This document shows, piece after piece, positions 1 to 30,510 of a stretch of DNA of 30,510 nt (position 1 is the stretch's first letter; each line of letters opens with the position of its first letter). The DNA is from a virus (taxonomy: Duplodnaviria; Caudoviricetes): positions 1 to 30,510 of the IMG/VR virus record IMGVR_UViG_3300033067_000709; one strand, written 5' to 3'. Below the pieces are notes generated by a model, which searched no databases, was not told where the DNA came from, and worked only from the letters and a program-made list of their open reading frames with translations. A program made the position numbers and the translations under genes.

Positions 1-171
1 AAGATCATTGCCGTTCAATCTGGCAAGGCTGCTACAGGCAAATCAGAAGACGAAAACGAAATGGACCACGTGCGTTTCGTATGTGCTCCGGGCTCCGGAC
101 AATTCACCATGTATGCATTCGCCGATACCAGCGTTGCTGGCAAATTCCTAGTCAACTATACAGTAGGGTAA
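1..171 (+). CDS. 3' end of a hypothetical (probably virion) protein, truncated by the window start
   Basis: Frame 1 is open from base 1 (KIIAVQSGK...FLVNYTVG) to TAA at 169-171, 4 nt before the next ATG. Not in the ORF track. Confidence 0.65.
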   Translation, partial: KIIAVQSGKAATGKSEDENEMDHVRFVCAPGSGQFTMYAFADTSVAGKFLVNYTVG

Positions 172-175
172 ACCA

Positions 176-862
176 ATGGCTCAAATCCAAAGCGGCGCTA
201 GTGCGGACCTTCTTACGATCGACGCAACCTCAAAGGCTGCTCGTGCAACGCTGTACGATGCTAGCGGACGTGAGCTTAGGCCCGTCTCTACTGGATCGTA
301 TTGCCTAGGGTTTCAGGTTCGTCATACTACGGCTGCCGCCGCTGGTATTACTGTGCTGAACGTTCGTGGTCCGGCTAGTAAGACCGCGTATATCAAGCGC
401 ATTCACGGTATCGTAGGTTTCGATGGCACGGCTTTGGCCACGTCCGGCACGCTCCGATACGGCATCCATCGCGGCAATGGTGCTGTTAACTCTAGCGCCG
501 GAGGTTCGCGCGTAGCTCCGGATCCTAGCGAGGGTAAGAAGCGTGGAGCTTATCCTAGTTGGTCATTGCAAGAGTTTACGTATGACCTAAACGGAACCGG
601 ACTTACTACTACAGGCATCACATATGAGGCGCAACCTATGCACATTCTGCATATGCCGGTTGTGTCTACGCAAGTTGCTGCCGCCACTACTAGCAACTCC
701 CAAGGATGCTATCAGGCATTCGATCTGAATTTCGCTCGCCACAGCGGTCTAGATCAAGCCATCGAACTAGGCTCAAGCGAGCACCTAGCGATTCGTCTAT
801 TGACCGTTGCTGCAATCATCGGCCTAACAATTTCGGGCTCTATCGAGTGGGACGAACGCTGA
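176..862 (+). CDS. Hypothetical protein, Ala/Thr/Gly-rich, possibly virion structural
   Basis: 228-aa ORF, tightly packed, phage-typical codon usage; no recognised motif. Confidence 0.7.
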   Translation: MAQIQSGASADLLTIDATSKAARATLYDASGRELRPVSTGSYCLGFQVRHTTAAAAGITVLNVRGPASKTAYIKRIHGIVGFDGTALATSGTLRYGIHRGNGAVNSSAGGSRVAPDPSEGKKRGAYPSWSLQEFTYDLNGTGLTTTGITYEAQPMHILHMPVVSTQVAAATTSNSQGCYQAFDLNFARHSGLDQAIELGSSEHLAIRLLTVAAIIGLTISGSIEWDER

Positions 863-864
863 AC

Positions 865-870
865 TATCCT
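865..870 (+). promoter_or_regulatory. Putative -10 element TATCCT of a leaderless transcript
   Basis: TATCCT-ggtagc-ATG(877); the same N6 spacing recurs at other gene starts. Confidence 0.55.
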
Positions 871-876
871 GGTAGC

Positions 877-1053
877 ATGGGCGAGCACGACACCCCTAAG
901 CTACCGGGCTGCAATGAAGGTGTGCATGCAGCTAAGGGATTTGATTCCCCCTGCATGCATTGCGGTGCGCCACCTCCGGCCAAGCACCCTAATAGGATTG
1001 TGAAGGTAGGCGAACGCTACCAGATCAAGCCCGGAGCCTACCTATTCACATGA
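877..1053 (+). CDS. Small Cys/His-containing hypothetical protein (58 aa)
   Basis: In-frame ATG at 877 within the 706..1053 ORF; C..H..CxxC; ATGA overlap with the next gene. Confidence 0.6.
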   Translation: MGEHDTPKLPGCNEGVHAAKGFDSPCMHCGAPPPAKHPNRIVKVGERYQIKPGAYLFT

Positions 1054-1943
1054 GCTACAACCCCTCCATTGAATTGCGCCCCTTCCTATGGGTTGCCTTC
1101 CCTTCCATGCTTGGAGGCTATGCTAAGATCATTGATCTTGCTAAGTCACTAGGCTTCGGAGGCATCGCGCCTCGCGCGGGGCAAGGGAATAGCGACGGGT
1201 CGTTTAGTCCCTCGCTTGACATGAAAGACGTTACTCGCATCGTTGACGCTGGACTAGAGTGCCATCCTTGGGCGTATTCGCGCGCGCAAGCTCTCGAGAA
1301 AGAGATTGGTTGTTACAAGCGCTGCTATGATGCCGGCGCTACCAGCACGATTATCGATGCGGAATCCCCGTGGGACGCACACCCGCAAGCTAAGTATTTT
1401 GCCGCCGTCTATGGAGACAGATTCCGTAAGGTGTGCGGCGATTCGGCTATTGTGTTCGACGCGCCCTGGCCTTGGATCGACTATCACCCTACCTATCCGG
1501 AGAAAGAGTTTCGGTGGGTGGACGGTCGCATGATTCAAGCTTACTGGACAGAGATTGGCGTCTCTGCTCGTGCATGCCTAGATCGTTCCTCCGCTATGTG
1601 GAAGGGTAAAGACGAGCGTGTGATGCCTATCGGTATCACTTACGGGCGTAAGGAAATCGCTAAGTGGGGTGGGCAGCAACTCCCCCCGGGCGAGATTGAC
1701 GCTGCTACGTGCTTGGCCGTCGCGCCCGAAGTGACCGGCGGTTGGTATTCGGCGGAAGCGGCCGGGCCCGGGGTGCTAGATGCGCTGGCCGGCGTTCTCC
1801 GGGCTTCGTCGGACCGGGACACCCTACCGGGAGGCCTGGACGAGACCCTCGTCTGTACGGAAGAGAACCTAGCAGAATGCGCACGCTACTACTCCGCTAG
1901 TGCGTCGCGCTTTGCTTCCTACGCGCTTTCGGTGTTTCCGTGA
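1050..1943 (+). CDS. Putative endolysin, glycoside hydrolase (GH25-like TIM barrel)
   Basis: PWAYS, IIDAE (DxE catalytic-like) and QAYW motifs; followed by membrane-protein genes. Confidence 0.55.
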   Translation: MSYNPSIELRPFLWVAFPSMLGGYAKIIDLAKSLGFGGIAPRAGQGNSDGSFSPSLDMKDVTRIVDAGLECHPWAYSRAQALEKEIGCYKRCYDAGATSTIIDAESPWDAHPQAKYFAAVYGDRFRKVCGDSAIVFDAPWPWIDYHPTYPEKEFRWVDGRMIQAYWTEIGVSARACLDRSSAMWKGKDERVMPIGITYGRKEIAKWGGQQLPPGEIDAATCLAVAPEVTGGWYSAEAAGPGVLDALAGVLRASSDRDTLPGGLDETLVCTEENLAECARYYSASASRFASYALSVFP

Positions 1944-2017
1944 GAGCAGAGCCCTATATTGCTTTCGTGTTTCTGTTCCTAATCGGGTTGCTCGCTTGGA
2001 GATCCGACCATGAGTGA
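1940..2017 (+). CDS. 25-aa single-TM peptide (MRAEPYIAFVFLFLIGLLAWRSDHE)
   Basis: GTG overlaps the upstream stop (GTGA); fills the gap and overlaps the next start; hydrophobic core. Confidence 0.45.
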   Translation: MRAEPYIAFVFLFLIGLLAWRSDHE

Positions 2018-2540
2018 TCCTCTAGTTCTAGCCGGCTTCGGACTTGCGCTAATCGTTCAGACGGGCGGATTCGCTTTCGCGTTCGGGCGAGTGTCAGGCA
2101 AGGTTGACGAGGGGGAAAAGATCGTCAACGAACTAAAGGCGTCTCTCGAGAAAGAGAGAAAGGAACGCGAGGAAGCCGTTAGAGCGGAGCGACTAGAGCG
2201 AGAGAAAGCAGACAAGGAACTAGAGCACACCTTTGCGTCTGTCATGTCGGAGATCCGTAAAGAAGCCAAAGAAGCGGCGACTAGTTCCAACTCACATCAG
2301 GATCGACGGTTGAACGCGGTGGAGGAACGTATCGAGAAACTCGAAACCGACTTGACAGAGCAACTGCATAAGGGTTTCGAGAAAATGGAAGGTGTGATTT
2401 CTGGCTTGACGCATAAGGTGTCAGAGCAAGCCATGCTCATGCAGCGTCTAGAGCTAAATCAATCTCGAATGAGCCAAACCCACATGCAGGCAATGAGGGA
2501 CTCCGGTCACCGTCTAGATCCTCGCAAGGAACCGGGCTAG
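2010..2540 (+). CDS. N-terminal TM plus coiled-coil protein (holin-like or inner-spanin-like)
   Basis: Hydrophobic first ~25 aa, then an E/K/R-rich helical region; adjacent to the putative endolysin. Confidence 0.55.
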   Translation: MSDPLVLAGFGLALIVQTGGFAFAFGRVSGKVDEGEKIVNELKASLEKERKEREEAVRAERLEREKADKELEHTFASVMSEIRKEAKEAATSSNSHQDRRLNAVEERIEKLETDLTEQLHKGFEKMEGVISGLTHKVSEQAMLMQRLELNQSRMSQTHMQAMRDSGHRLDPRKEPG

Positions 2541-2543
2541 GCC

Positions 2544-2549
2544 TATCCT
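2544..2549 (+). promoter_or_regulatory. Putative -10 TATCCT, followed by a short leader with an AAGGA RBS
   Basis: Intergenic gccTATCCTacccgAAAGGActacaccATG(2568). Confidence 0.45.
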
Positions 2550-2567
2550 ACCCGAAAGGACTACACC

Positions 2568-2903
2568 ATGGGAATGCCTACCGGATATGAGCCGCACGCT
2601 GCTACCGCTAACAAGGATCAAGCTAGCGCCGCTACTAGCGGGACAAATGCCACGACTGGCATTACCCTTGCCGGAGCTCCGGAAGGCCTAGTGAGTGTTT
2701 TCTTGGACGGGCTCCGTATGGAGCTAGGCGACGGAGTAAAGACCAAAGACTTTTACTTCTCGTCCGATACCGGAACCACGGCAAAGGCCCTAGCTAACGT
2801 TCGGAAGGGTGACACCCTTTATTGGACTAAGTACCGGGAGACTTACAATCTCTCTACCGCTAACAAGATCTCTCTGCACTACACCACGCTTTCGGGAGTC
2901 TAA
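2568..2903 (+). CDS. Hypothetical virion structural protein
   Basis: 111 aa, Thr/Ala-rich, VFLDGLR beta-rich motif typical of virion accessory proteins; good RBS. Confidence 0.65.
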   Translation: MGMPTGYEPHAATANKDQASAATSGTNATTGITLAGAPEGLVSVFLDGLRMELGDGVKTKDFYFSSDTGTTAKALANVRKGDTLYWTKYRETYNLSTANKISLHYTTLSGV

Positions 2904-2905
2904 CA

Positions 2906-3526
2906 ATGATCTGTTTCAAGGCAATCAAGCAACTCCCTACGGCTCGAAACGTTGTCACGGCTAACGTGGCAAGCCTTGCGGCTTTCACCGTTGCTGGTAA
3001 CGACGGTGTTACCAATATCGAGGGTGATACCGTCATCCTAACTGCACAGACGACCGGAACACAGAACGGCCCTTACGTGGTCGGCGCAGTGGCCGGAGGT
3101 ACCGCAACCCTTACGCGGCCGGATTGGTTTCTCACTGGAGACACCTTCGTACCTGGACTCAAGTCCTCTATCTATGTCACGGATGGAACTATCTTCTCTG
3201 GTACGTGGTGGGACTCTAAGAAGACTGCTAGCGGAGTGGTTGGCACGGATGATCCGCTGTACTACGTCCGTCGCGTCACCGTCGCCGCCGTCCTAGTGGC
3301 CGGTACCGTCACGGTCGCGACGATCCCGCTGTTCAGCGCGACGAAGTCTAGCGTGCAACTCCAGTTGGTCACGCCGAATACCACGACGTCCACCACTAGC
3401 TATTCCACTCCGACCCTTACACCGGGCAAGATTGGTACGGCTTCGATCGTAGCTCGCGCGAACGTGGCAGCCGGAACGATCAACAATGCGGACGTCTCTA
3501 CGCTAGCACTAACCGTCCAGAACTAA
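2906..3526 (+). CDS. Virion fibre/decoration-type protein
   Basis: VTANV...DGV...GDTVILTAQT...NGPY...TR.D motif, widespread in phage fibre/structural proteins. Confidence 0.65.
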   Translation: MICFKAIKQLPTARNVVTANVASLAAFTVAGNDGVTNIEGDTVILTAQTTGTQNGPYVVGAVAGGTATLTRPDWFLTGDTFVPGLKSSIYVTDGTIFSGTWWDSKKTASGVVGTDDPLYYVRRVTVAAVLVAGTVTVATIPLFSATKSSVQLQLVTPNTTTSTTSYSTPTLTPGKIGTASIVARANVAAGTINNADVSTLALTVQN

Positions 3527-3538
3527 AGGGAATAGGCA

Positions 3539-3820
3539 ATGCCCGCATACGGAACGGCCACTCTAGCAGCGTCGACCAATAAGCAACTAAGCGCGGCGGC
3601 TGCTCAGTTGCCGTCCGGCCGTTGCCGTATGCGTTGCATCGTCACTAACCCGTATGACAGCGGGATTGTCGTGGCCATTGGTTCCGACAATACCATTACC
3701 ACTGCTAAGGGTAAGCCCTTGCTCCCGGGAGAGTCTTGCGCGTTCTACGTGGGCAACTCTAACGAGCTATGGGCCATCGCTGCTAGCGGTACTCCGACGA
3801 TCGCAATTTTCCTAGAGTAA
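3539..3820 (+). CDS. Hypothetical small beta-sandwich structural protein
   Basis: 93 aa, G.PLLPGES motif, operonic spacing. Confidence 0.6.
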   Translation: MPAYGTATLAASTNKQLSAAAAQLPSGRCRMRCIVTNPYDSGIVVAIGSDNTITTAKGKPLLPGESCAFYVGNSNELWAIAASGTPTIAIFLE

Positions 3821-3822
3821 CA

Positions 3823-5721
3823 ATGAAGCACCCTTACATGGGTTCCGAGCCGCTCGGGTTGCCGCTATGCATGCGTAGCGTCGACTATTCATTGCTCCCT
3901 GTTGGGGCGATGGCTGGCCGGACGCTTCCGGGAGGGCGGACCTACACGCAGCTCGCGGGGGCGAACCAGCTCGAGGAGACGGTGCAGACGAGCGCGAGCA
4001 CCGTCGCGCGCTGGCCGTTCGTCGCGAACCTGCCGCGCATTGGGCTCTTGGCCGATGGCGGGATCGGGCTCGTGCTCGAGCCGCCGAGGACGAACATCCT
4101 GCTCCGCTCGACCGAGTTCGACAACGCGCAATGGGCGAAACTCGGCGGGTCCAACGTCAACGCGAACGCGACAACGTCTCCGACCGGCGCGAGTGATGCT
4201 GACACGAGCACGGCCGGCGCAGGCTACTGGCAGCAGGGGCAAGCGTGCTCGGTGTCGGTGCCGTACACGGGTAGCGTCTACGTGCGTGGCGATGGCGCGG
4301 TGTCGCTGGGGCTCCGGGTCACCGACACGTCCGACGGTGCGCCAACCACCAACGCCACTTTCGTGTTGTCTACCTCGTACCAGCGTCTAGCCGTAACGCT
4401 GCAAGGCGACGCGACGATGGCGCAGGCAGGCATACTGATCGGCCAGCCTGTCAACTTCCAGGGGGGCCACAGCTATGCGATCTGGCAGGGCCAGACGGAG
4501 CAGGGCCGGTACGCAACAAACCCGATCATCACCGCCGGCACGGCGGCGAGCCGCGCCGGCTTCCGCGTCACGACCCCGCTCTCGCGCTACGTGCGCGGCG
4601 GCGTCTTCCGCGCGGTGCTGACGACGGTGCCGCACGGCGCGGCGACGGAGTACGACGGCGACAGCGCGACGATCCGCCTCTGGACGATCGACGCGAACAC
4701 CTACGCCGAGGTCAACACGACGACGCGCGTCCTCACCGTGAGCGTGAACGGCGTCGCGCGCGTGGCCGGCGTGCCGCTGTGGTGGCTCCGCGGGCACCGC
4801 GTGCAGTGGTCCTGGGAGGTCGGCGGGGGCAACCTTCGCGTGCGCTACCGGTACTCGACGGACCAGGGCGCGACGTGGACGCTCCCTTTCGATCCGTTCG
4901 GCGGGACCGTCTACTCGGACAGCGCGATCTCGACGGCGAGCAGCACGATCGACCTGTACTCGGACAGCGGCTCGTCGAAGTGGTGGGGCACGGGCGTTGT
5001 CAGCGAAGAGGCCATCATCACCGCGCCGGCGTGGGCGCTGCAGTTTTTGCCCACTGCCGACGCTGCTGTGCAGGCACACCTACGCGGCGAGGCCGCATAC
5101 GTGCTCGCTGGCAGCACCGTGTCGTCGATCGGGTCGCAGGCCGCCACAGCGGGGCTCGGGTGGGCACAGGCGGCGGGTGCAAGTCAGCCGAGCGTCGCCA
5201 CTTCCGGTGGCAAGACGTACCTGTCATTTGACGGATCAAACGACTACCTCTACGGCGCCGCAGCCTCTTCGTACGCCGGAGCGAGCGCAAAGACGGTGTG
5301 GATCGTCACCAGGATTCGCAGCGTCACGCTCAATGGTGCGGCCTCGTACAACAATCACATGCTGGTCGGAGACGGCGGCGCGGGCGCTCTATGGGGCGCT
5401 TACACCAAGGTCGGCCCGCTCGCCATCGGATACAACTGGGATGGCACGGACGATGGTGTGACCGCCAGCGTCGGCCTCGCCGCGTGGACGTGGCTTCGCT
5501 ACCGCCACGACGGATCCACGGTCTATCTGTCCGTCGCCGGAGGAGCCGAGGTGACCGTCGCGTCTGGAGCTACGTCCTCCATGGCTGGAGTGTTGAGCGT
5601 CGGCGGGAGAGCTTCGGGCGCGTGGGCACCCATCGACGTGCAGGATGTGATCATCGCCAACAGTGCCACCGTCGGACAGCAGGCTGCGATCGATGCCTAC
5701 TGCGCGCAAAGGGTCGCCTGA
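3823..5721 (+). CDS. Fibre/spike protein with carbohydrate-binding-like and C-terminal LamG/ConA-like domains
   Basis: GLVLEPPRTNILLRSTEF (head-spike-fibre-like), WQGQTEQG..AT.PI.T and LSFDGSNDYL (LamG-like) motifs; 632 aa. Confidence 0.7.
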   Translation: MKHPYMGSEPLGLPLCMRSVDYSLLPVGAMAGRTLPGGRTYTQLAGANQLEETVQTSASTVARWPFVANLPRIGLLADGGIGLVLEPPRTNILLRSTEFDNAQWAKLGGSNVNANATTSPTGASDADTSTAGAGYWQQGQACSVSVPYTGSVYVRGDGAVSLGLRVTDTSDGAPTTNATFVLSTSYQRLAVTLQGDATMAQAGILIGQPVNFQGGHSYAIWQGQTEQGRYATNPIITAGTAASRAGFRVTTPLSRYVRGGVFRAVLTTVPHGAATEYDGDSATIRLWTIDANTYAEVNTTTRVLTVSVNGVARVAGVPLWWLRGHRVQWSWEVGGGNLRVRYRYSTDQGATWTLPFDPFGGTVYSDSAISTASSTIDLYSDSGSSKWWGTGVVSEEAIITAPAWALQFLPTADAAVQAHLRGEAAYVLAGSTVSSIGSQAATAGLGWAQAAGASQPSVATSGGKTYLSFDGSNDYLYGAAASSYAGASAKTVWIVTRIRSVTLNGAASYNNHMLVGDGGAGALWGAYTKVGPLAIGYNWDGTDDGVTASVGLAAWTWLRYRHDGSTVYLSVAGGAEVTVASGATSSMAGVLSVGGRASGAWAPIDVQDVIIANSATVGQQAAIDAYCAQRVA

Positions 5722-6077
5722 TGCCCTCCGTCATCATCCCCACCCGCACCGCCGCGCAGCAGCTCTGCGACGACCTCGCGAAGCTCCTCGGCCTGCCCGA
5801 CCCCGCGCGCTACCCCGGAACCGAGCGGTGGGCCGAGCCTGTGCCGCTCGCCGTCCCTGTCCCTCGGAAGGGTCTGCTAAAGGACGCACTAGACGACCTA
5901 CAGGGCGCTAGGAAGGCTGCGAAGGTCTCCGCCCTTACAGACGACCAGACAGACCTAACGGGCGCGGTACGTGTCAAGGTAATCGGAAAGCTGGCCCTGG
6001 ACGAAGTGCTAGCGCAAATCGATACCGCTCGGAAGGTGCAACCGGAAGAGTGGCAAATAACGGAGCTACCCAAATGA
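5721..6077 (+). CDS. Hypothetical protein (118 aa, MPSVIIPT...)
   Basis: ATG at 5721 overlaps the fibre stop (TGATG); 3' part of track ORF 5298..6077. Confidence 0.65.
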   Translation: MPSVIIPTRTAAQQLCDDLAKLLGLPDPARYPGTERWAEPVPLAVPVPRKGLLKDALDDLQGARKAAKVSALTDDQTDLTGAVRVKVIGKLALDEVLAQIDTARKVQPEEWQITELPK

Positions 6078-6386: not shown

Positions 6387-6728
6387 ATGTCCGAAGAAAG
6401 CACTAAGGCCGACATTGCTAAGCGTACCGAGCAGATTGCGGCCGGGCTTCCTCCGACCACTGCGATCGGTTACACACCCGAGGAAGCGGAGCTATCCCAT
6501 GCTATCGCCGTGGAGGGCGCTTCCGCTCTACGCGCGATCGAGCAACGGATCCAAGAGCTAACCCCCTCGGATGCTGAACTAATCCTAGCGACCATCGCGG
6601 ATAAGCTTCCGCTGCTAGGGCCGGCGTTCAAGCTTCTAGGCTTGCCTCACGCGGATAAGGCTGCCGAAGGTGCGAAGCTACTCAGCGAAGCCCTGGACGT
6701 TGCCAAGCGGACGCTAGGCCTGTTCTAA
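6387..6728 (+). CDS. Hypothetical protein (113 aa)
   Basis: ATG at 6387; upstream TAAAAT at 6351-6356; strongly CTA-biased Leu codons. Confidence 0.6.
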   Translation: MSEESTKADIAKRTEQIAAGLPPTTAIGYTPEEAELSHAIAVEGASALRAIEQRIQELTPSDAELILATIADKLPLLGPAFKLLGLPHADKAAEGAKLLSEALDVAKRTLGLF

Positions 6729-6736
6729 CCCGCACC

Positions 6737-6742
6737 TATCCT
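6737..6742 (+). promoter_or_regulatory. Putative -10 TATCCT upstream of the tail sheath gene
   Basis: Intergenic accTATCCTagtccgtAAAGGGAGcacctagcATG(6766). Confidence 0.45.
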
Positions 6743-6765
6743 AGTCCGTAAAGGGAGCACCTAGC

Positions 6766-8106
6766 ATGTCCGTTGACACCATTGTCTCTGTCAGCATTAC
6801 GCGAAAGACGAAGTATCCGAGCCGCAAGGGTTTCGGTACGGCCATGCTGCTCGTCTCTAAGGTCCCTACGTCGTGGGGTACTAAGAAGAAGGAGACTTAC
6901 GGTAACACCCTGACGGAGCTTACCGACGACGGATTCCTAGTGACGGATCCGGCCTACCTCATGGCCCAAATCCTCCTAGCCCAGAATCCAACGATCAAGT
7001 CTTTCAAGGTGGCAAAGCGCACGCTACCTCCGACTAAGTCTATCAAGCTAACGGTTACCAACAATACCGAAGGCTACGTGTATAACTTCAAGGTCAATGG
7101 GACCGCGATTACGTACACCGTTCCGGCCGCGCAGACCACTACGCAAGTGGCCACTGCACTAGAGCTACTAATCGAAGCAGTGACGGATATCACTTCTTCG
7201 TCCGCCGTCAACGTTATCACCATGGGTGCCCCGGCCGGTACCTTGATCGACGTGGAGAACTGGATCGGTACTGACAACGATGTGCCCGGCGGCGATAGCG
7301 GGATGCTTCTAGAGGACGCGACCACCGATCCGGGCATTGCCACGGACCTTGCGGCCGTCTATGCCATGGACTCCGATTGGTATGCGATCGTTGTTGACAG
7401 CATGGGAAAGCTAGAAGCGGCGGCAGCATCCACGTGGGCGGAAGCTAACAAGATCCTGCTAATGGTCGACGCGGCCGATAGCGAGATCTGGGATTCCGGC
7501 GATACGAACGATGCTGTTTCGGTCGCCAAAGCCGCAAGCCAATTCCGGACTTGCTATTGGGTGTCTAACACGAAGCTACTTCACTGGACTTCGTGTGGAA
7601 TTCTAGGGAGCCGTCTAACCAAGGATCCCGGTTCGGATACTTGGAAATTCAAGACTCTGTCTAACGTGACTCCAGGACAATTCACGGAAGGCCAGAAGAC
7701 GGCCATCCACAATAAGAACGGCAATACGTATACGACCGTTGGAGGCCTTACTATCACAGAAGAGGGTAAGACCGCCGGCGGAGAATTCGCCGATATCATG
7801 CGGTTTAGCGATTGGCTGCAAGCGGAGATCCAAACGGACGTGTATGCTACGCTAGCGAACGCTGAGAAGCTACCCTTTACGGATGCCGGTGCAGACGTGC
7901 TAAAGGGTGTCGTTAGCAGCGTACTAAACCGCGGCGTCAAGGTCGGAGGCCTAGCCAATGATCCGGCCCCCTCCGTCGACGCTCCGCTAGTGGCTACTGT
8001 GTCCGCCGGCAATAAGGCTGCCCGTAACTACCCTGACATTACCTTCCTAGGTACGTTCGCAGGGGCGATCCACTTCGTCGGTATCAGTGGCACCATCGGC
8101 GTCTAA
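6766..8106 (+). CDS. Contractile tail sheath protein (DUF3383-like)
   Basis: 446 aa; IVSVSIT..GFGT, PGSDTWKFKTL, EG...GGEFADIMRFSDWL, KLPFTDAG and GAIHFV motifs. Confidence 0.9.
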   Translation: MSVDTIVSVSITRKTKYPSRKGFGTAMLLVSKVPTSWGTKKKETYGNTLTELTDDGFLVTDPAYLMAQILLAQNPTIKSFKVAKRTLPPTKSIKLTVTNNTEGYVYNFKVNGTAITYTVPAAQTTTQVATALELLIEAVTDITSSSAVNVITMGAPAGTLIDVENWIGTDNDVPGGDSGMLLEDATTDPGIATDLAAVYAMDSDWYAIVVDSMGKLEAAAASTWAEANKILLMVDAADSEIWDSGDTNDAVSVAKAASQFRTCYWVSNTKLLHWTSCGILGSRLTKDPGSDTWKFKTLSNVTPGQFTEGQKTAIHNKNGNTYTTVGGLTITEEGKTAGGEFADIMRFSDWLQAEIQTDVYATLANAEKLPFTDAGADVLKGVVSSVLNRGVKVGGLANDPAPSVDAPLVATVSAGNKAARNYPDITFLGTFAGAIHFVGISGTIGV

Positions 8107-16808: not shown

Positions 16809-17388
16809 GATAGGCAAGGTCTAGAAGCACGTTCCGGAATTCTATGGGTGTAGCCCGGAGCTCCGCGCCATGCAATTTCGATCTTGCTTCGCCCCTCTTA
16901 CGCTCCCGGCAATTGTCGATCCGGTGCTTGCCGCTAGAGGGACCCCAAACCAAATCCTTGGGCTGTCTAACTCCAACGTAATAGAGCCAAGTTGCTTTGC
17001 GTGCTCTGTGTCCGTAGTGGCCCTGTTCGACGCAGCAAACCCACCCAAGGCCGGAGCGGATCCAACCCCCATTGCGTGGAGGCTTGGCTAGTCCGTGCGC
17101 CTTGAATGCGTGCGTCGCCTCCGGATGCTCGAGCACCCCACCGCATCGGTTGACGGCTGCTAGCGCCGCTGCAAAGCACCCTCCGTCGTCGCCTAACACT
17201 TTCTGCTTAGGTGTGCCGTGGAGCATCGGCCCTCCGCCCCAATAGCGCCCCCATCTTTCACAGGGAGGGTGCGCCACTACAGGCAGATTACCAGAGTAAG
17301 TCCTAGCGTCTCTTGAGACGTCCCACGCATCCACATTGGGAATGCAGTAGACTCCCGGCCGTTCCACGAACAACGCTGCTACTAGCAT
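16783..17388 (-). CDS. Short DNA cytosine-C5 methyltransferase-like protein
   Basis: AHPPC (motif IV-like), VLEHP (motif VI-like), GH.ARKATWL (motif VIII-like); motif I is degenerate (LFVERPG). Confidence 0.6.
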   Translation of the reverse strand: MLVAALFVERPGVYCIPNVDAWDVSRDARTYSGNLPVVAHPPCERWGRYWGGGPMLHGTPKQKVLGDDGGCFAAALAAVNRCGGVLEHPEATHAFKAHGLAKPPRNGGWIRSGLGWVCCVEQGHYGHRARKATWLYYVGVRQPKDLVWGPSSGKHRIDNCRERKRGEARSKLHGAELRATPIEFRNVLLDLAYLSRCYPSV

Positions 17389-21521: not shown

Positions 21522-22994
21522 TCCCATACTCTTGGCGTTAGCCATAGCAGCGGTGTAATCCAGCGCTCCCATGCCAGCCATGTAAGCTAGATATTGGCTT
21601 GTCATGTCCACCAAATCATCGTTGGTACCGCGCGGAAACTTCACCATTTGATTTATGTATTCCGCAACCCATGGTGCGTTTTCCGGTAGCCAAATGTTGG
21701 CGGAGTGGAAGAAGGGAACTACCGCCTTTGCTCGAGAAAGCTTGCTATCGTTACCAGGGTTGTAAGGTATGATTCCCTGCATACGATCTTGCTTGGTAAG
21801 GTAATTCATAACGGCAGTCCCGTTAGCCTTATCCTCTATTAGCTTTCCGTACGCTTGCGGGTATTGAGCCGTCGTGTCTTTGATCGCTTGGATGGTTTGC
21901 ACGAAATCCATCTTAGCGTTACCGATGTCCACTAGGTAGTGATTCGGATGGTCGTATAGCCATACTCCGGAGGCGACGAAATCGGATGTGCTCTCACCCT
22001 TGAAGGTGCAATCCCATGATTGAGTCCACACACCTGTTTCGGGTAGCTTGCTATAGCGGTTGTCAAAGTGTGTGCGGACGAAAACGATACCACTCTCAGG
22101 GGTTGGATCCTGCTGATACTGGGCGGACCATGTTTCATGATCCTTCTTCTTTAGCGCTAGGACTTCATACGTAAAGCGAGCAATCCAGAAAGAGATCCCT
22201 TTGACCTCTCCACGTGGATCTGTATTGACGCACGTACGGTAGGGCCTGCCGTCGCTTTCGGCAGGGATGCGCAAGTGCTCGAAAGACATACCTCCGGCCT
22301 TAGCGTCGTCTAGCAAGCGGCCAGCTAGATCATTCTCCGCTAGCCGTTGCATGATAAGCACAGTGGAAACAGTGGCCGGGTCTCGAGCACGGCTAGCCAT
22401 GGTGCCTGTCCACCACTTCCAGGCTTTCTCTAGATTCTCTTCTGTCGCTTCTAGTGGCTTCGTGGGATCGTCAATGACCTTCTTACCAGGGTGACGGCCC
22501 GTTGTCTTACCCGCAACGGAGGTGGAAAAACGCCAACCGCCGGCCGGAGCTCCGGTCCCTAGATAGGTGTCTATCTCACCTTGCGCGCTATTCGGATCTA
22601 GCTTTACGTGCCTCCCCCAACGGTCCATGAACCATTTAGAGCACATAAGCATTTGTAGTTTACCCGCGTCACGCAACGTTAGCCCAGCATCAAAGGATGC
22701 ATATAGGAAGGCTTCGGAAGGGTTGCGAATCCACTCCCATGCATTCCAGAACACGCTAACGATTGTGCTCTTGCCGGAGCCCGGCGGCACGTTGATTACT
22801 AGGTTGCGGATCTGGCCGGAGCTAACCGCTTCCAAGTGCTGACAGATATGGTCAATGTGCCAGTTTCCTTGAAAGGTGGTAGCCGGCTCTACTATGTGCC
22901 AACCGTGCTCCACTAGCCAAGCCAGGGACCTCCGACCTTTCTCCCTGTCGTGGGCGCACTGGAGTTGCTCCCGGGAGTATCTAACCGGACCCAA
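21513..22994 (-). CDS. terL: Terminase large subunit
   Basis: Walker A INVPPGSGKS, Walker B VIDDP, IMQRL, YQQ.P, and nuclease SWD, IEDKANG, FP....DDLVD motifs. Confidence 0.93.
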   Translation of the reverse strand: MGPVRYSREQLQCAHDREKGRRSLAWLVEHGWHIVEPATTFQGNWHIDHICQHLEAVSSGQIRNLVINVPPGSGKSTIVSVFWNAWEWIRNPSEAFLYASFDAGLTLRDAGKLQMLMCSKWFMDRWGRHVKLDPNSAQGEIDTYLGTGAPAGGWRFSTSVAGKTTGRHPGKKVIDDPTKPLEATEENLEKAWKWWTGTMASRARDPATVSTVLIMQRLAENDLAGRLLDDAKAGGMSFEHLRIPAESDGRPYRTCVNTDPRGEVKGISFWIARFTYEVLALKKKDHETWSAQYQQDPTPESGIVFVRTHFDNRYSKLPETGVWTQSWDCTFKGESTSDFVASGVWLYDHPNHYLVDIGNAKMDFVQTIQAIKDTTAQYPQAYGKLIEDKANGTAVMNYLTKQDRMQGIIPYNPGNDSKLSRAKAVVPFFHSANIWLPENAPWVAEYINQMVKFPRGTNDDLVDMTSQYLAYMAGMGALDYTAAMANAKSMGLL

Positions 22995-23589
22995 TTGCGG
23001 CCTCCCGGGCGCGGTCTAGAGCGCTTGCTAGTAGTGCTTCGGCCGCTCGCCTTGCCGCCGGCTCGACGCCCCATCCTAGGGCATCAGAGAGGGTGGAGCC
23101 GTTCGCACCCTCGGCGCTCGCCCATAGTAGCTCTAGATCTTGTGGGTCCATGTTCGCGAGGTGGACGCCTAGATCGAGCCTACTAGACACACGCGCTTCC
23201 GGGGATTCCGCTCTAGCGTTGTGGGGGCTTTGCCCTGTCAAGATTTCGTATGCGTCGGACATGGTTACGCCGTCCAGGAACATACGTTTAGAGAGTCCTC
23301 TTTCATCGGCCGCGTTACACTGTAGCTCGTGCAAGATGCGCCAGCGTGCGAACACGTAGAAGAGTCCGCTACGATCGTCCAGTTGCTTCGTGATATCAAA
23401 CTTCTCTATGGCTACGATCAAACCAATAACGCCGGCGTTCACTAGGTCGGGGCTTAGCTCCCTTGATCTGCCCCTACCTTGAAACTTCCAAGCAACATCG
23501 TAAACCAGCGGCATATTCTGGCTTACTAGTTCATTGCGCAATTGCAAATCACCATTTTGCTTGTAAAGACGGAGGGCCGCGATATCCAC
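22981..23589 (-). CDS. Sigma-70-family RNA polymerase sigma factor-like protein
   Basis: Region 2: RNELVSQNMPLV...DLVNAGVIGLIVAIEKFD...F..FA.WRI; degenerate region-4-like C-terminus. Confidence 0.8.
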   Translation of the reverse strand: MDIAALRLYKQNGDLQLRNELVSQNMPLVYDVAWKFQGRGRSRELSPDLVNAGVIGLIVAIEKFDITKQLDDRSGLFYVFARWRILHELQCNAADERGLSKRMFLDGVTMSDAYEILTGQSPHNARAESPEARVSSRLDLGVHLANMDPQDLELLWASAEGANGSTLSDALGWGVEPAARRAAEALLASALDRAREAAIGSG

Positions 23590-24423: not shown

Positions 24424-24692
24424 TCTCCGACCCCCCTGCGCTTGATTCCCCCCGCTGGCTTCGGACACTTCGCAAGCCCGTTTCTCTCCCGGTACTCCTG
24501 CATTGCATCGGCCGCTTGGAGGACATCGTAACAGACAGGATCCATGCCCTTGTCCATGGACCGAAGCCGTACGTACTCCCGCATCACTTGCACCGAATAG
24601 GCATCCGAACCCAAGATCAATGCGCTAGGCATTTCCTTATCTAGTGAGCGGACCATTTCGGATGCGTCAAGTAGATTGCTAAACGTTTTCAT
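24420..24692 (-). CDS. Hypothetical protein
   Basis: ATGA overlap with the polymerase stop (MKTFSNLL...). Confidence 0.6.
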   Translation of the reverse strand: MKTFSNLLDASEMVRSLDKEMPSALILGSDAYSVQVMREYVRLRSMDKGMDPVCYDVLQAADAMQEYRERNGLAKCPKPAGGIKRRGVGE

Positions 24693-26659
24693 GCAGTACC
24701 TTCCCACACTTGAATATTGCCGTTTGCGTCGACCAGACTCTTTGCGTCCTTAGACCAATGAGACATAAGCACGGGCTCCCGGAAGGCCTCCATAGCTAGC
24801 GAGAAAGGCACATCCGGTACCCAACGGTTAGCGCCGGCTACCATTAGCTCGCACATTCGGCGCACCTTAGCGGAAGCCTGTTCGTCCCTACGTACCTCGA
24901 TAATGAATTCATCGTGAACGTAATTGACTAGACGCGAGCCGAACAGGATACTCTTTCGGGTTGGATCGTACATTTCACTTGCGATATACCATCCGGCTTC
25001 GCTAGTGGCGTCCGCACCCAACCCTTGAAAGAATGTGTTACAGGCTGCCGTGTAGCGAACGCTTCCACGATAGCGCTTGCAACCGCCTAGTTGCTCTATG
25101 AACCCAAGGCCTCCGTCACCGGAGCACATGGAAGAAACGGCATCGAAGTAGCTCGACATTTCGGGCCACGTGCTAAGCCATTTCTGTTTGAGGTGTCGTG
25201 CTTCGTCTTCTGTGATAATGACGCCATAGGTAGCGCGCGCGAAGTCCACTAGAGCCTTGAAACCGAGGCCTCCCGGGAATCCGAAATTCGCAACCTTAGC
25301 GGCCTGCCGTGCCTGTTTCACTTCCTTGTCTTTGGAATTGGCTTTGGCGTGTTCATACGTGGTATGGAGCAATTGTGCTGCTACCATCATATGAGGATCC
25401 GCGTCCGGATCTGAATTCAGGAACCGAGCTAGCTCGGATTGTCCGACGAGCCAAATGCACGATTGCGCCAGGGTCCTTAGCTCTAGTCCAGGGTAGTCCG
25501 CTTGTCCGTACACGTAGCCTTCACGTGGCACGAAGCACTCACGTATTCCAGGGAGACGCCGCACGTTCTGAACGTTAGGACCGCTAGAAGAGCTCCGGCC
25601 TGTTTCAATGAGTTGAAAGCGGGAATGTATCGGGAGACTGGAGCCCTGTCTAAGCATCTTGAGATCCTTAGACTGAACTGTCATGAGGGTACTAAATTCG
25701 GCGTACAGTTTCAGCGCAGGATCCTCGGTACGCTCGCAACTGTCAGCGTCCAGACATACCCCTTTGAGGGTGGAAAGGTCCCACACTGCGCCGGCCTTAT
25801 TCTTCTTCTCTTGCGTGTCAGTAGCTACGATGCTGATACCGGCCGCTTGACACACCTTCACCATGTGAGCGGCGGCAGCCTTGGTATTGCGGCTGCCGTC
25901 CTTACGAGCGAAGCCGTACGCCTCCAAGGCCGATTGCAGTTCAGCCATACGGGAGTCTACCCCCTTAGCGAACGCTTCCACGCCAATAGGGTTGGTACGC
26001 AATCCCCAATTGGACATGAGACGGAACCAGAAGTCGCGCCTAGCTTGTCGGTATTGATCTTGAAGTAAAGCGGCGTGTTCCTCTTGAGAGAAGTAGATTC
26101 CAAGGGTCGCACGTGCGTCGTGCAACGGATAGATCCTGGCTTCCTCCGGCCATTGCTCTAGAGGGATGCCGCGTAGGCTTCCGTACTTTAGGCGCCAAGT
26201 ATCTTTCTCGAGACGCCAACCCAAGTTGCGCTTGGCTACGGAGTCAAGATCGTAATTGTTTACGACCCAATAAGAGGACCCATCCGAGCGGGTCTTTAGC
26301 TCTTTCCGAAACTTGCCGGCCGCAATGTCCAGTAGCCTTTGACGGATTTCTGTGTCTGTGACTCTGTCTTCGTTATAGGCTCGGAAGACTAGAGGTATCA
26401 GGCTCGGATCGTGCTGACACATGACGGCAAAGTCAAAGCCTACGTTGTGGCCGACAAGTGTAACGCCGTCTCTTGCCAGCAACTTGGCAAGCACTCCGCT
26501 TGCGTCAAACGAATCAAAGAGCAGTGCTGGCCACTCGCTAGGGTGCTTATCAGGCTCTCTCGTGACAGAGGAGCACAGAGATAGGCAAGCTAGCTCCGGA
26601 GCTTGAACACCGGGCCGGATTAGCTCCGTCTCTGTGTCCCACCCTACTACTGTGGTCAC
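24689..26659 (-). CDS. Family A DNA polymerase with a 3'-5' exonuclease domain
   Basis: ExoI WDTET, ExoII GHNVGFD, ExoIII Y..HD; TGRSSS..PNVQN; motif A DYPGLELR; motif B RQAAKVANFG; motif C VHDE. Confidence 0.95.
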   Translation of the reverse strand: MTTVVGWDTETELIRPGVQAPELACLSLCSSVTREPDKHPSEWPALLFDSFDASGVLAKLLARDGVTLVGHNVGFDFAVMCQHDPSLIPLVFRAYNEDRVTDTEIRQRLLDIAAGKFRKELKTRSDGSSYWVVNNYDLDSVAKRNLGWRLEKDTWRLKYGSLRGIPLEQWPEEARIYPLHDARATLGIYFSQEEHAALLQDQYRQARRDFWFRLMSNWGLRTNPIGVEAFAKGVDSRMAELQSALEAYGFARKDGSRNTKAAAAHMVKVCQAAGISIVATDTQEKKNKAGAVWDLSTLKGVCLDADSCERTEDPALKLYAEFSTLMTVQSKDLKMLRQGSSLPIHSRFQLIETGRSSSSGPNVQNVRRLPGIRECFVPREGYVYGQADYPGLELRTLAQSCIWLVGQSELARFLNSDPDADPHMMVAAQLLHTTYEHAKANSKDKEVKQARQAAKVANFGFPGGLGFKALVDFARATYGVIITEDEARHLKQKWLSTWPEMSSYFDAVSSMCSGDGGLGFIEQLGGCKRYRGSVRYTAACNTFFQGLGADATSEAGWYIASEMYDPTRKSILFGSRLVNYVHDEFIIEVRRDEQASAKVRRMCELMVAGANRWVPDVPFSLAMEAFREPVLMSHWSKDAKSLVDANGNIQVWEGTA

Positions 26660-26742: not shown

Positions 26743-26936
26743 TTGCTTACTAGCTCCGATGCGAAGGTTTCGATCTTGGCTCGTGTCTTCCAAGCGTTCG
26801 CCTTGCCACGTTCGTGCTTGACGGTATCCCCCGAAGCGAAGCCCTCTTGACATTCTTCCATTGCCTGTCCTAGCTCGGTAAGTAACTGGAGTGCTTGCGC
26901 GCCTAGCATGTGCTGCTCTGCTACGGTTAGGCTCAT
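26739..26936 (-). CDS. Hypothetical protein (65 aa)
   Basis: ATGA overlaps at both ends. Confidence 0.6.
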   Translation of the reverse strand: MSLTVAEQHMLGAQALQLLTELGQAMEECQEGFASGDTVKHERGKANAWKTRAKIETFASELVSK

Positions 26937-27181
26937 TTGCTAGCCCTGTTACGTGCCATCTTGATACACTCCAAGCAAATGCAGCTTCTTACTAAGGGCT
27001 TTACTCCGTCTGTGCTAGGCAGGTAAATGAAGGCCCACCCATGCTTAGCTAGGAACGCCCCTAAAGTTTCCGCTGGATCCTCGCCCGGAGCTACGATCTT
27101 GCGCAAATCCTCCGCCGAGGATTCTGGTTCGCAGTAGTCACAGATTACTGTGATAGTCCTAAGCGTTTGATCCTTTACCAT
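26933..27181 (-). CDS. Small zinc-finger-like protein
   Basis: ICDYC...GW...CLEC; purine-rich RBS. Confidence 0.6.
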   Translation of the reverse strand: MVKDQTLRTITVICDYCEPESSAEDLRKIVAPGEDPAETLGAFLAKHGWAFIYLPSTDGVKPLVRSCICLECIKMARNRASK

Positions 27182-28061: not shown

Positions 28062-28067
28062 TCTGCT

Positions 28068-28073
28068 AGCCTA
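28068..28073 (-). promoter_or_regulatory. Putative -10 TAGGCT, leaderless
   Basis: - strand TAGGCT-agcaga-GTG(28061). Confidence 0.5.
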
Positions 28074-28175
28074 ATACAGTCATTCCAAGGGCCATTCCAT
28101 GCGCGACAATGACTACCAGCATGCTTCGCAGTGGTGGGAGAACATGCGTGGTAATGTCTGCTATCAGCGCCATCG

Positions 28176-28257
28176 TGCTACCCGGGGGAATCGAACCCCC
28201 ATGCCTTGCGGCGTCGGAACCTAAACCCGGTGCGTCTGCCAGTTTCGCCAGGGTAGC
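28176..28257 (-). tRNA. trnL: tRNA-Leu, anticodon UAG (reads CUA)
   Basis: Acceptor stem GCTACCC/GGGTAGC plus discriminator A; D-arm TGGCGAAACTGGCAGACGC; anticodon loop TTTAGGT; long variable arm GCC-GCAA-GGC; T-arm GGGGG-TTCGATT-CCCCC; CCA not encoded. Confidence 0.95.
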
Positions 28258-28294
28258 AAAGTCCCACTAACGTAGGGACACACGGATCGTATGT

Positions 28295-28316
28295 ACTTAG
28301 GACGATCGGCCTAAGT
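28295..28316. repeat. 22-bp near-perfect palindrome ACTTAGGaCGATCGgCCTAAGT
   Basis: One mismatched pair; lies between the upstream gene stop (28320) and a putative tRNA -10 TACGAT (28291-28286). Confidence 0.7.
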
Positions 28317-28319
28317 CTA

Positions 28320-29072
28320 TCAGGCCTTAGGGGCCGGACTGAAAACGTACCGAGTGACCCGCTGACTCTTCTTCGTGACGTGGATCGAAGTGGTGACGAC
28401 CACGAAACGACCGTTCAGGGTTTTATTCTTGCAGGCGTCCTCCAACATCCCCTGTGATTGAGGCGCAAGTTGCGTATTGATAATCGCCAACTGCTGTGAA
28501 TCGTTCGCATCCAAGCCACTCACGGCGGCGAGGAATTCGATCAAATTGGCGAAAGCGATCGAACGATCCTTCAAGGTTTGCACCCACCCTCGCTTGACGC
28601 CGATCGCAACCTTCGGATTGGTGCTACCCACTACCTCCAGTTCCACGATGACGGCGACACCGCTACGCTGTGTGTTCTTTACCAGCATTTCGTTGATCCG
28701 GCAAAGGTACGAGCCCGGACCTTCCGCGTTGTCTTCCGCGTTGAAATAGCTTCCCTTAGAGAAAGCTTGACCCTGGTTCATACCGTCAAAGGCATTGCCT
28801 AGGACGGGGTGAGCGGGGGCAGGCATGGGAACCGGCGGGGGAGGGGGCGCGTAGCCCGGGGGAGGCGCGTAAGGGGCCGGAGGTGCGAACGCGGGGGGCG
28901 GGGCCGCTCCCGGCGGGGCGTACGGAGGGGGAGCGAAGCCGGGAGGGGAATAGCCCGGGGGAGCGGCCGGAGGCGCGTACGGAGGCGCGAAGCCGGGAGT
29001 AGGTGCGGGGGCAGCCTGGACGGGGGGAGCACCGGGGATCTGGAAACCGTAGGGATTGCTGGGATTGCTCAT
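28320..29072 (-). CDS. Pro-rich N-terminus plus DUF669-like (putative ssDNA-binding) domain
   Basis: AAGGA RBS before ATG 29072; about 90 aa of PPGY/PPYAPP repeats; PG.Y...I...VELEV...L.EFLAA...L.GR pattern; located in the replication module. Confidence 0.6.
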   Translation of the reverse strand: MSNPSNPYGFQIPGAPPVQAAPAPTPGFAPPYAPPAAPPGYSPPGFAPPPYAPPGAAPPPAFAPPAPYAPPPGYAPPPPPVPMPAPAHPVLGNAFDGMNQGQAFSKGSYFNAEDNAEGPGSYLCRINEMLVKNTQRSGVAVIVELEVVGSTNPKVAIGVKRGWVQTLKDRSIAFANLIEFLAAVSGLDANDSQQLAIINTQLAPQSQGMLEDACKNKTLNGRFVVVTTSIHVTKKSQRVTRYVFSPAPKA

Positions 29073-29099
29073 TGGGATTGGTGTCCTTACTTGGGATTG
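29052..29099 (-). repeat. Four CAATCCC direct repeats spanning the start codon
   Basis: + strand GGGATTG at 29052, 29061, 29074 and 29093. Confidence 0.65.
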
Positions 29100-29203
29100 A
29101 TCTCGGAACGTCACGGTATGTGACGGAGCCATGTAAGGGACTTGCACCCTTCACGCTAGCGTATGTGTGGCGCCTTGCGTGTCCTTTGACATGGCTAGTA
29201 TTG

Positions 29204-29287
29204 CTATTTCCCTCCGAACAGTAGCAAAGTAACTATGAAGGTAAGACCGAAGCCGTAGAAAAACCAATCCCAATCGCTAGCGCGCAT
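29204..29287 (-). CDS. 27-aa membrane peptide (MRASDWDWFFYGFGLTFIVTLLLFGGK)
   Basis: TAATG overlap with the upstream gene; one clear TM segment. Confidence 0.5.
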   Translation of the reverse strand: MRASDWDWFFYGFGLTFIVTLLLFGGK

Positions 29288-29526
29288 TAGCGTGTTCCCT
29301 CCGGCGGCCACTTAGCGTGTTGCGGACAGAGATAGATGTATGAGTGCATGTTATCCCTGTCTGATATGGTCTGGAAAACTCGCCACCCTTCGGCCCTAGC
29401 AATAAGCACAGGGGCAGGAGCTATTTCGCTGCTAGGGGATTTCGCTTCCGGCTTTATTACGTATACCTTAGTACAGCCGAAAATATCACACGCAATGGCC
29501 GTGCATTCCAGTTTGCTAGCAGCCAT
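29287..29526 (-). CDS. Small zinc-finger-like protein
   Basis: GGAGG RBS before ATG 29526; CDIFGC...GW...CPQH. Confidence 0.6.
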   Translation of the reverse strand: MAASKLECTAIACDIFGCTKVYVIKPEAKSPSSEIAPAPVLIARAEGWRVFQTISDRDNMHSYIYLCPQHAKWPPEGTR

Positions 29527-29785
29527 GCGCTTCCCTCCATACACCTGCCGGATCCTGATAAGGGTGACGCTTGGATCGCAGATCGAAGCCGCCTCGACTA
29601 GTGGAGCCGATGCGTTGATCGGTCGCCTCTAGTGCGTTCTGAGAGATCAAGTGGGCGCGCAGTGCCACGTGGCCCGGGCAAGCGTGCTCGAGACTGCCGC
29701 AAAGACACTTGGCCGGAGCTTTACGCTCCCTTAGCAGCACGGTAGCAATGCTCGACTCATTTGCGTAGAGACCATCGATAGTCAT
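29516..29785 (-). CDS. Hypothetical Cys/His-containing protein
   Basis: ATGA overlap with the helicase stop; CLCGSLEHACPGH. Confidence 0.55.
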   Translation of the reverse strand: MTIDGLYANESSIATVLLRERKAPAKCLCGSLEHACPGHVALRAHLISQNALEATDQRIGSTSRGGFDLRSKRHPYQDPAGVWREAHGC

Positions 29786-30510
29786 CCGTTCGCCCTCCAA
29801 CGGTAGCAATGTTTTCCCCATTCAAATACAGATCTGAAATCGGGGATTGAAACGTCCGCAAGCAAAATCTTCTGAGAATGTCCAGTCATTTGCTCGATTG
29901 CCTTAGCAGCGTCTAGCGCATTGGTAAAGCTTTCGTAGTGCTCCCGGCAACCTAGCAAGAATTCCGCTGTTACTTCGTCTGCTTTCTGCCCGTCACGGTG
30001 CGTTCGTCCTAGTAGTTGCTCCCACATGGGAGCGCCGGCCGGAGGCGCGGTTAGCAAGTTGCGTCGCCACGCTTGGAGGTTGCGCCCTGTAGCGTTCGCC
30101 TTAGCCGATGCAATCAAGCTTAGCCCAGGATCAGCCGCTTCGATAGCACGACCGGAAGCGTCTAGGCCTTCCTGACCGAAATATGACAGACCAGTCCGAC
30201 GAGCCAATTCCCGGGCGAAAAACCCATGCTCGCACCATATGATACCAGGGACCTTATCCGCCGCCCACCTCGCACACAGATCTAGCGCGGTATCATCGTG
30301 CCAAACGGGTTTGCTGTTCGCTTGAAAGGTTGGTTTGATTGCGTTCCAAGCGTCCCACGTATGCCTAGGAAGATCTCCGGCCTCGCATGCGTGCGCTACC
30401 TGTAGCTCCGTATCGAGTTTCTTGGAGTGGCTTAGCACATCCCGAACGAATTTAGCCCACTCCCTACGCGCTTCTAGCCACTCCATTGGAGGGCGAGGAT
30501 CCCATACGTA
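29782..30510 (-). CDS. Superfamily 2 helicase, C-terminal part (truncated by the window end)
   Basis: Motif V-like ATGRNLQ and motif VI EQLLGRTHRDGQ; the frame stays open to the window edge. Confidence 0.85.
   Translation of the reverse strand, partial: YVWDPRPPMEWLEARREWAKFVRDVLSHSKKLDTELQVAHACEAGDLPRHTWDAWNAIKPTFQANSKPVWHDDTALDLCARWAADKVPGIIWCEHGFFARELARRTGLSYFGQEGLDASGRAIEAADPGLSLIASAKANATGRNLQAWRRNLLTAPPAGAPMWEQLLGRTHRDGQKADEVTAEFLLGCREHYESFTNALDAAKAIEQMTGHSQKILLADVSIPDFRSVFEWGKHCYRWRANG

Follow-up and report, generated by a model that had tools for sequence, protein, structure and literature searches.

Why the DNA of one uncultured phage should be crowded with CTAG, CTA and TAG and short of CAG and CTG is the question raised by the virus record IMGVR_UViG_3300033067_000709 (Caudoviricetes). 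The window, as we call the whole stretch analysed here, comprises 30,510 nt (positions 1-30,510 of that record); it is estimated to be 67% complete and is by itself the phage's entire genome record. We find that the signature is real, that it is wider than the initial annotation saw and that it is not caused by the methyltransferases that the phage encodes. The window has lost many asymmetric words of five to seven bases besides gaining CTAG, and the combination is best read as a variant of restriction-site avoidance, site avoidance and compensating tRNAs both being phenomena of an already known kind.

The hand counts from which the signature was proposed are exact: 8 CTAG in 1-600 and, in 6721-7320, 6 CTAG and 27 CTA plus TAG against 10 CTG plus CAG. 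Over the entire window, which has a G+C content (GC) of 56%, CTAG occurs 264 times, a zero-order observed-to-expected ratio (O/E) of 2.28, with CTA/TAG at 1.46 and CAG/CTG at 0.64. Markov correction does not bring the odds near 1, since CTA/TAG (1.35, z +10.6) remains the most enriched and CAG/CTG (0.68, z -10.1) the most depleted trimer; CAA/TTG stands at 1.31, and CTAG lies outside the 15 highest tetramers once its trimers are corrected for. The bias also survives an amino-acid-preserving codon shuffle (200 synonymous shuffles of 38 of the 40 genes): CTAG is found 247 times against 167.5±8.4, TAG 383 against 273, CTG 291 against 429 and CAG 270 against 321. At the level of codons, CTA accounts for 347 of 839 leucine codons (41%), TTA for 5, and CAA for 185 of 301 glutamine codons. 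Recoding of TAG was considered and rejected, since every one of the 40 genes stays open under code 11, with TAG serving as the stop codon of 11.

Comparison with relatives draws on loci fetched from 46 aligned members of the PolA family (80 viral, 80 metagenome and 27 genome loci). From these 187, the 135 of at least 10 kb were dereplicated to 106, giving with the window a clade set of 107 loci that are not independent of one another. The sister phage, G001, is syntenic with the window and 92% complete (CTA 26%, CAA 63%, no TTAA); the next-nearest relative, G004, has CTA at 34% and CAG at 1.64.

The bias is symmetric between strands, as the initial annotation had stated: the choice of A or G at third positions mirrors the T/C context of the opposite strand (r 0.93 over 12 codon boxes, 0.85 with TTR), and the 1247 bases of non-coding DNA show the same bias (CTAG 2.5, CAG 0.66). 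Thus, the cause acts on DNA. It is conceivable that a tRNA came first, in that tRNA-Leu(UAG) made CUA preferred and the word bias follows from translation. The CUA-reading tRNA does exist (28175-28257, minus strand; near PolA in G001 and G004 too) and tracks CTA use, since the four loci with tRNA-Leu(TAG) have CTA at 0.26-0.42 against a median of 0.07, and the three nearest relatives bearing it form one clade. However, no such tRNA was detected in 7 of the 11 CTA-high loci, and the mirrored bias on the non-coding strand and in non-coding DNA largely refutes this explanation, which we regard as extremely unlikely. Avoidance of Shine-Dalgarno sequences was likewise set aside as an insufficient cause of the AG-rich losses, the Shine-Dalgarno-like pentamer being low on both strands.

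What the initial annotation missed are the words that are absent. Forward selection and a Markov scan reveal gapped asymmetric words at or close to zero, for example CTCGNAG (0 against 18) and GATGNAC (0 against 16). Hexamers at no more than 25% of expectation number 69 of 1621 in the window; simulation, run three times, yields 2-4, host-like DNA has 5 of 1209 and five control phages have 11-47. It is the identity of the lost words, more than their number, that sets the window apart. For 247 patterns derived from the window (overlapping one another, six TTAA-containing ones having been dropped), O/E is 0.37 in G001, where 109 of the 247 are at or below 0.25, and 1.13 in 320 kb of Polyangiaceae-family DNA (0 of 243 at or below 0.25), 1.04-1.12 in the five control phages and 0.71-1.00 in eight other clade genomes. 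Yet at four-fold sites the window and G001 are near saturation, 35.7% being identical against 25.4% for unrelated sequences. An internal negative control is provided by two GC-rich genes on the plus strand at 3823-6077 (a putative tail-fibre gene and its neighbour, GC at third codon positions 0.74-0.84), which are free of the signature and still hold the avoided words: patterns derived from G001 have an O/E of 0.84 in this insert against 0.21-0.34 in the window core. In the copy of this module carried by the sister, 47% identical to that of the window, the avoided patterns have an O/E of 0.24. The module is therefore likely to have been swapped in recently.

The lost words share an asymmetric shape. 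An ending in A followed by C or G is found in 94 of the 247 patterns and in 37 of 70 shared patterns, against a background of 18.9%, and the avoided patterns with this ending are low on both strands (coding 40/658, template 24/464). Among gapped 7-mers (order 3), strong depletion affects 36 of 1059 ending in V-A-S (V, any base except T; S, C or G) and 91 of 9078 others, while words ending in T-A-S (2 of 359) or S-A-W (W, A or T; 2 of 735) are spared; the corresponding figures in G001 are 26/1108 against 50/9473. The ratio of V-A-S depletion is 3.2 in the window, 3.9 in the sister and 2.7 in the clade relative ctsHD2, compared with 0.6-2.3 in control phages and host pieces; an index with TAG-ending words is inflated in host DNA, and the V-A-S index was used instead. 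A general avoidance of orthodox Type II palindromes is not observed, as hexamer palindromes overall are not depleted (O/E 1.06) and CTAG, GATC and CCGG are enriched, although the single palindromes TTAA and ACGCGT (0 in the window) are gone or nearly so. P-values for such words treat overlapping words as independent. By eye, the 50 most depleted patterns include sites listed in Table 1 of Morgan et al., 2009 (PMC2731913), namely those of CstMI (1 against 19 in the window, 0 against 39 in G001), NhaXI (0 against 14; 1 against 31) and PspPRI (0 against 25 in G001), and a site like that of RpaB5I (3 against 21; 5 against 34). Separately, an asymmetric pentamer, TCCAT/ATGGA, is lost in four lineages of the clade (G002, 4 against 44; G005, 0 against 49; G006, 17 against 128; G008, 0 against 65) and is a candidate Type III-like site.

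Part of the signature appears to be shared with the host. Polyangiaceae-family DNA has CTAG at 0.03-0.12, TTAA at 0-0.17, CAG at 0.52-0.91 and GATC at 1.7-3.4, and therefore the absence of TTAA, the excess of GATC and part of the CAG deficit are host-like, whereas the excess of CTA/TAG is the phage's own. TTAA, whose loss had also escaped the initial annotation, occurs once (486-489) where about 39 are expected; since it is near zero in the Polyangiaceae-family samples and in Myxococcus phage Mx8 as well, its loss need not be phage-specific. The tetramer profile of the core correlates at 0.21-0.50 with five Polyangiaceae-family samples and at 0.03-0.26 with six others, which, like the shared lack of TTAA, is no more than suggestive of a GC-rich myxobacterial host. 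No exact spacer-like DNA match to the window was found in 301 order-level genomes, 9 of which hold short matches (66-89% identity), and 5 of the 301 have weak matches to the tail-fibre protein. Some of the fetched loci lie on Labilithrix and Polyangiaceae contigs of metagenome-assembled genomes (MAGs), others in unrelated bins. One 276-kb Labilithrix MAG contig (L165 and L218, G011:C1) carries clade replication genes (helicase, PolA, resolvase and two more G001 homologues) together with a homologue of the small methyltransferase; it has host-like composition, and the stretches fetched contain no structural homologues.

How the words are avoided was resolved position by position with a conditional logit over 8465 synonymous sites. 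CAG is avoided whichever of its bases is free (first -0.71±0.09, middle -1.12±0.10, last -1.40±0.11), while the joint model shows a preference for TAG mainly with the T as the free base (+1.32) and none with the last base free (-0.06±0.17). At four-fold sites followed by AG, the shortfall of C is made up by T, and CTY makes up 219 of 661 codons of the CTN box (0.33) against 0.56 in other boxes.

An appealing scenario, to which we give about an even chance, is that the word losses and the gain of TAG/CTA arose under long selection by host restriction that methylates adenine at N6 (m6A) on a single strand (Type IIG/MmeI-family, Type III or BREX-like), with TAG/CTA as a refuge and tRNA-Leu(UAG) as compensation. 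Repeated exposure to host enzymes would purge words ending in CAG, GAG, AAG and NAC. Such sites would mostly have C, G or a purine ahead of the methylated A, leaving T as the free letter, and TAG would therefore rise; that TAG is favoured mainly when T is free is as a refuge predicts. Because CAG, GAG and AAG as opposed to TAG read on the opposite strand as the leucine codons CTG, CTC and CTT as opposed to CTA, leucine would shift to CUA, escape into TTA being barred by codon rarity and by TTAA. The phage tRNA-Leu(UAG) would offset the cost of a codon that makes up 0-2% of leucine codons in host-like DNA and 41% here, the lack of TTAA, the abundance of GATC and some of the CAG deficit would represent host-type background, and the phage's own methyltransferases would be passengers as far as the signature is concerned. 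The suggestion that the phage evades host defence motifs containing CAG or CTG thus gains support, in a broader form involving many asymmetric words. As expected of Type IIG/IIL sites, 6-7-mers with a penultimate A and a final C or G are preferentially missing, the loss affects both strands and it is kept in the diverged sister. MmeI-family sites are described as methylated on one strand at the penultimate A in the portions available to us of Morgan et al., 2009 (PMC2731913) and Blow et al., 2016 (PMC4752239), and none of the 22 sites in Table 1 of the former specifies T before the target A. Of 81 genomes from the family of the Labilithrix MAG, 63 have MmeI_Mtase-like (PF20473) matches. Across the clade, V-A-S depletion rises with CTA use when GC is controlled for (partial rho 0.33, 72 loci), and clade-wide support for selection by host restriction is moderate.

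Several observations weigh against this scenario. Caulobacter phage Jess A is comparable in its number of depleted hexamers (47 of 1458) and has a similar weak end bias, and some host pieces and Mx8 approach a ratio of 2 for V-A-S depletion. The PF20473 matches are mostly partial and are also present in 7 of 14 control genomes, the agreement of the depleted words with published sites was judged by eye, and the host itself is inferred only. Host-like DNA also avoids CAG with the middle base free (-0.5, -0.7 and -0.2 for first, middle and last base in one sample, -0.8, -0.8 and -0.2 in another), so that part of this avoidance is background. Without GC correction, motif-depletion indices do not track CTAG (rho 0.02, and negative with another index). 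G009 and G010 have far lower CAG (0.10-0.17) without any gain of TAG, and G005 and G006, both complete records, reach CTA at 27-33% without the tRNA. CTAG stays the strongest positive logit term even after 30 motif terms are included, and thus the refuge effect may not explain the full CTAG excess. Finally, Rusinov et al., 2018 (PMC6286503) report, in the portion of that paper available to us, that neither Type I nor Type IIG sites are avoided in phages.

The persistence of CTAG as a positive term could mean that it is selected as a mark recognised by some protein of the host or the phage, in addition to the ordinary avoidance of sites. Of all tetramers it fills the largest share of its allowed places (243 of 635), it stands 20-80-fold above its level in host-like DNA, and the CTA-high state has changed about 7 times on the PolA tree. 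However, GATC (36%) and CATG (35%) are filled almost equally, CTAG is unevenly spaced (coefficient of variation 1.03 against 1.02±0.07) and the indifference of TAG to a free last base does not fit such a mark, which we consider distinctly improbable. No significant even spacing was found for CTAG, GATC, CCGG or five other words, and GTTAG, filled at 55 of 475 allowed places, is not favoured.

A mechanism that the initial annotation proposed, in which 5-methylcytosine in CWG contexts deaminates unrepaired and turns CAG into TAG and CTG into TTG/CTA, does not hold up and we judge it very improbable. It is true that no trimers are more enriched than TAG and TTG/CAA, that T gains C's losses before AG, that an encoded protein appears closest in predicted fold to C5 methyltransferases and that the repair protein Vsr is found in only 10 of 61 family genomes. 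However, avoidance of CAG is as strong at its middle base as at its C, CCWGG contexts are not singled out and CTAGG/CTTGG are not the top products. CTA drains CTC and CTT as well, and a G>A change cannot produce the resulting CTY shortage. CTAG and CAG are uncoupled across the 107 loci (rho +0.17, with 5 of the 10 CTAG-rich loci being CAG-poor), G004 and G005 have CTA at 27-34% despite CAG at 1.6-1.7, and two family genomes with no Vsr match keep CTAG at 0.03-0.06. Among strains about 90-95% alike in runs X1, X5, X6 and X10, substitution totals in X5 are near-symmetric (C>T 282, T>C 258, G>A 200, A>G 211); none of 40 listed variant sites falls inside CTAG, a number too small to be informative about context.

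The two methyltransferase assignments are reasonable in themselves. The N6/N4 DNA methyltransferase (PF01555; 27159-28061, minus strand) itself carries the signature in its gene and survives in G001 merely as a 29-aa remnant; the 201-aa C5-methyltransferase-like protein (phrog_12600; 16783-17388, minus strand) is absent from G001, which retains the signature nonetheless. PF00145 is found in none of 11 phage records, among which phrog_12600 occurs in the window alone and is absent from the 10 related records, and two contigs of a related strain in run X5, albeit with short flanks, skip the 201-aa gene. Conversely, three cultured phages and four clade loci carry this gene without the signature, the phages (Persinger, PQ43W and Jess A) having CTAG at 0.08-0.32 and CAG at 1.14-1.55. 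A phage C5 or N6 methyltransferase is thus rejected as the cause, the sister, the gene-bearing phages and the gene-bearing loci all breaking the link. The 201-aa protein looks like a stripped-down C5 methyltransferase: P41-P42-C43 and E87 are invariant in 117 sequences, and we take them to be the catalytic Pro-Cys and a motif-VI-like Glu, with no obvious target-recognition domain. It has no Pfam or PDB sequence match, and its predicted model (pLDDT 88.7) gives matches of which nearly all listed by Foldseek are of DNMT3, M.HaeIII or M.HhaI type but weak (best E 0.002, TM score 0.27-0.41). The family is very large and unannotated, all 8000 scored candidates passing E 1e-10, with microviruses included.

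It is also possible that mutation rather than selection underlies the signature, a PolA with biased errors, together with escape from host repair, lowering GC, lifting the suppression of TA exerted by the host and piling up TAG, the missing words being by-products. The family A DNA polymerase of the window (24689-26659, minus strand), which has a 3'-5' exonuclease, is indeed unusual, as the initial annotation held, in that its O-helix has Gly at the position equivalent to Klenow Tyr766. Klenow Y766A is a mutator according to the part of PMC3715850 available to us, and the PolA family may possibly be one too. Across the 107 loci, CTA use is higher where GC is lower (rho -0.66) and CTAG follows the TA odds (0.74), and the gain of TAG lies mostly at its T position. 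However, the Gly is invariant in all 46 aligned members while the signatures of the clade differ widely, so the involvement of PolA in the signature does not follow from its oddity. Near-zero gapped 7-mers common to a synonymously diverged sister are hard to produce by local mutation context, and neither the avoidance of CAG at its middle base nor the CTY deficit fits. While a mutational share in the signature is possible, we consider mutation as its main source unlikely.

Relatives differ in which short words they avoid. In the L065 lineage (G007, L206-L207), CA/TG has an O/E of 0.33, CTG makes up 1% of leucine codons, GATC is about 0 and TA is 1.86; T before G and C before A are both avoided, which thus looks like selection on the two-base word. 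CAG/CTG is at 0.10-0.24 in G009, G010 (L211-L216), L023, L025 and L056. G009 and G010 avoid CAG at all three positions (-1.8 to -2.8) and escape to CAA/TTG and CTC, not to TAG; no C5 methyltransferase was found in these two. GATC is essentially gone in G004, G005, G007, G008, L056 and L073, compared with an O/E of 4-6 in other clade members. Perhaps the hosts of the clade carry a DNA-level defence that reads words far shorter than classical restriction sites (CAG/CTG, or CA/TG in the L065 lineage) and drives recoding of whole genomes. On such a view G009 and G010, with CAG/CTG at 0.10-0.17, and G007 would bear its mark, and the window would have escaped into TAG/CUA with a tRNA of its own. We think this rather improbable; if it were true, the clade genomes would be readouts of an undescribed myxobacterial defence.

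The remainder of the window is that of a contractile-tailed phage, with genes for sheath, tube, tape measure, portal, terminase, sigma factor, resolvase, PolA, the two methyltransferase-like proteins and tRNA-Leu(UAG). Core DNA with the signature spans 1-3822 (putative lysis and tail-accessory genes) and 6078-30510 (tail, portal, terminase, sigma factor and replication genes). No close cultured phage was found, the best PolA match being 29%, and single-protein searches of IMG/VR with PolA or sheath found no close relative, the baseplate hub reaching at most 45% identity; PolA itself comes from a large uncultured family, which accounts for 796 of the 8000 proteins scored. The box CTATCCTA occurs on the plus strand at 2543, 6736, 9153, 13035 and 18400, 5 times against 1.45 expected, and four of the five lie 5-55 bases ahead of likely late-gene starts; it is a candidate promoter for the phage sigma factor encoded at 22981-23589.

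Should selection by host single-strand m6A restriction prove correct, the window would be an exception to the published finding that Type IIG sites are not avoided by phages, would tie restriction pressure to a reshaped codon table and the acquisition of a tRNA within one lineage, and would predict the m6A motifs used by uncultured hosts that are probably myxobacteria. Natural replicates are available within the clade, with about 7 CTA-high changes and lineages that lack GATC, lack TTAA or show extreme avoidance of CAG or CA. A search of mostly open-access literature, excluding the supplements of PMC4752239 and PMC6286503, returned no report of CTAG-enriched phages, of phage avoidance of IIG, MmeI or BREX sites, or of a myxobacterial methylome.

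Parts of this picture have counterparts among known systems. The window resembles known cases of restriction-site avoidance by phages, as described in the available parts of PMC6286503 and PMC7230728, in that specific short words are nearly eliminated on both strands and in relatives alike. The cases known from these sources are mostly palindromic orthodox Type II sites, whereas the words lost here are asymmetric; in the HF1-group haloviruses CTAG is itself the avoided word, where the window enriches it, and non-palindromic avoidance is unexamined in that portion of PMC7230728. The avoided words are like MmeI-family sites as tabulated in PMC2731913, which are asymmetric, 6-7 bp long, with a penultimate A, mostly a final C or G and often one degenerate position, but the enzymes listed there come from unrelated bacteria. 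The window also avoids 5-mers, which would be Type III-like by the length rule in the portion of Blow et al. (PMC4752239) available to us, unlike the MmeI family. The words concerned here, CTAG and CCWG, are also those involved in very-short-patch repair by Dcm and Vsr; the footprint of that system, confined to the C position, specific to CCWGG and dependent on a C5 methyltransferase, is not seen here. Dcm/Vsr repair is an explanation of the rarity of CTAG in enterobacteria. Phage tRNAs that match codons over-used relative to the host are likewise a known pattern. The tRNA-Leu(UAG) of the window, with CUA at 41%, conforms to it, as does a second codon-matched tRNA, tRNA-Gln(UUG), present in G001 (L190:19273-19344; CAA 63%) and in L006, which is CAA-rich as well. 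What differs from codon-compensating tRNAs of the usual kind is that the shift here acts at the level of DNA and is word-specific rather than a plain drift towards AT, and that some CTA-rich relatives do without the tRNA.

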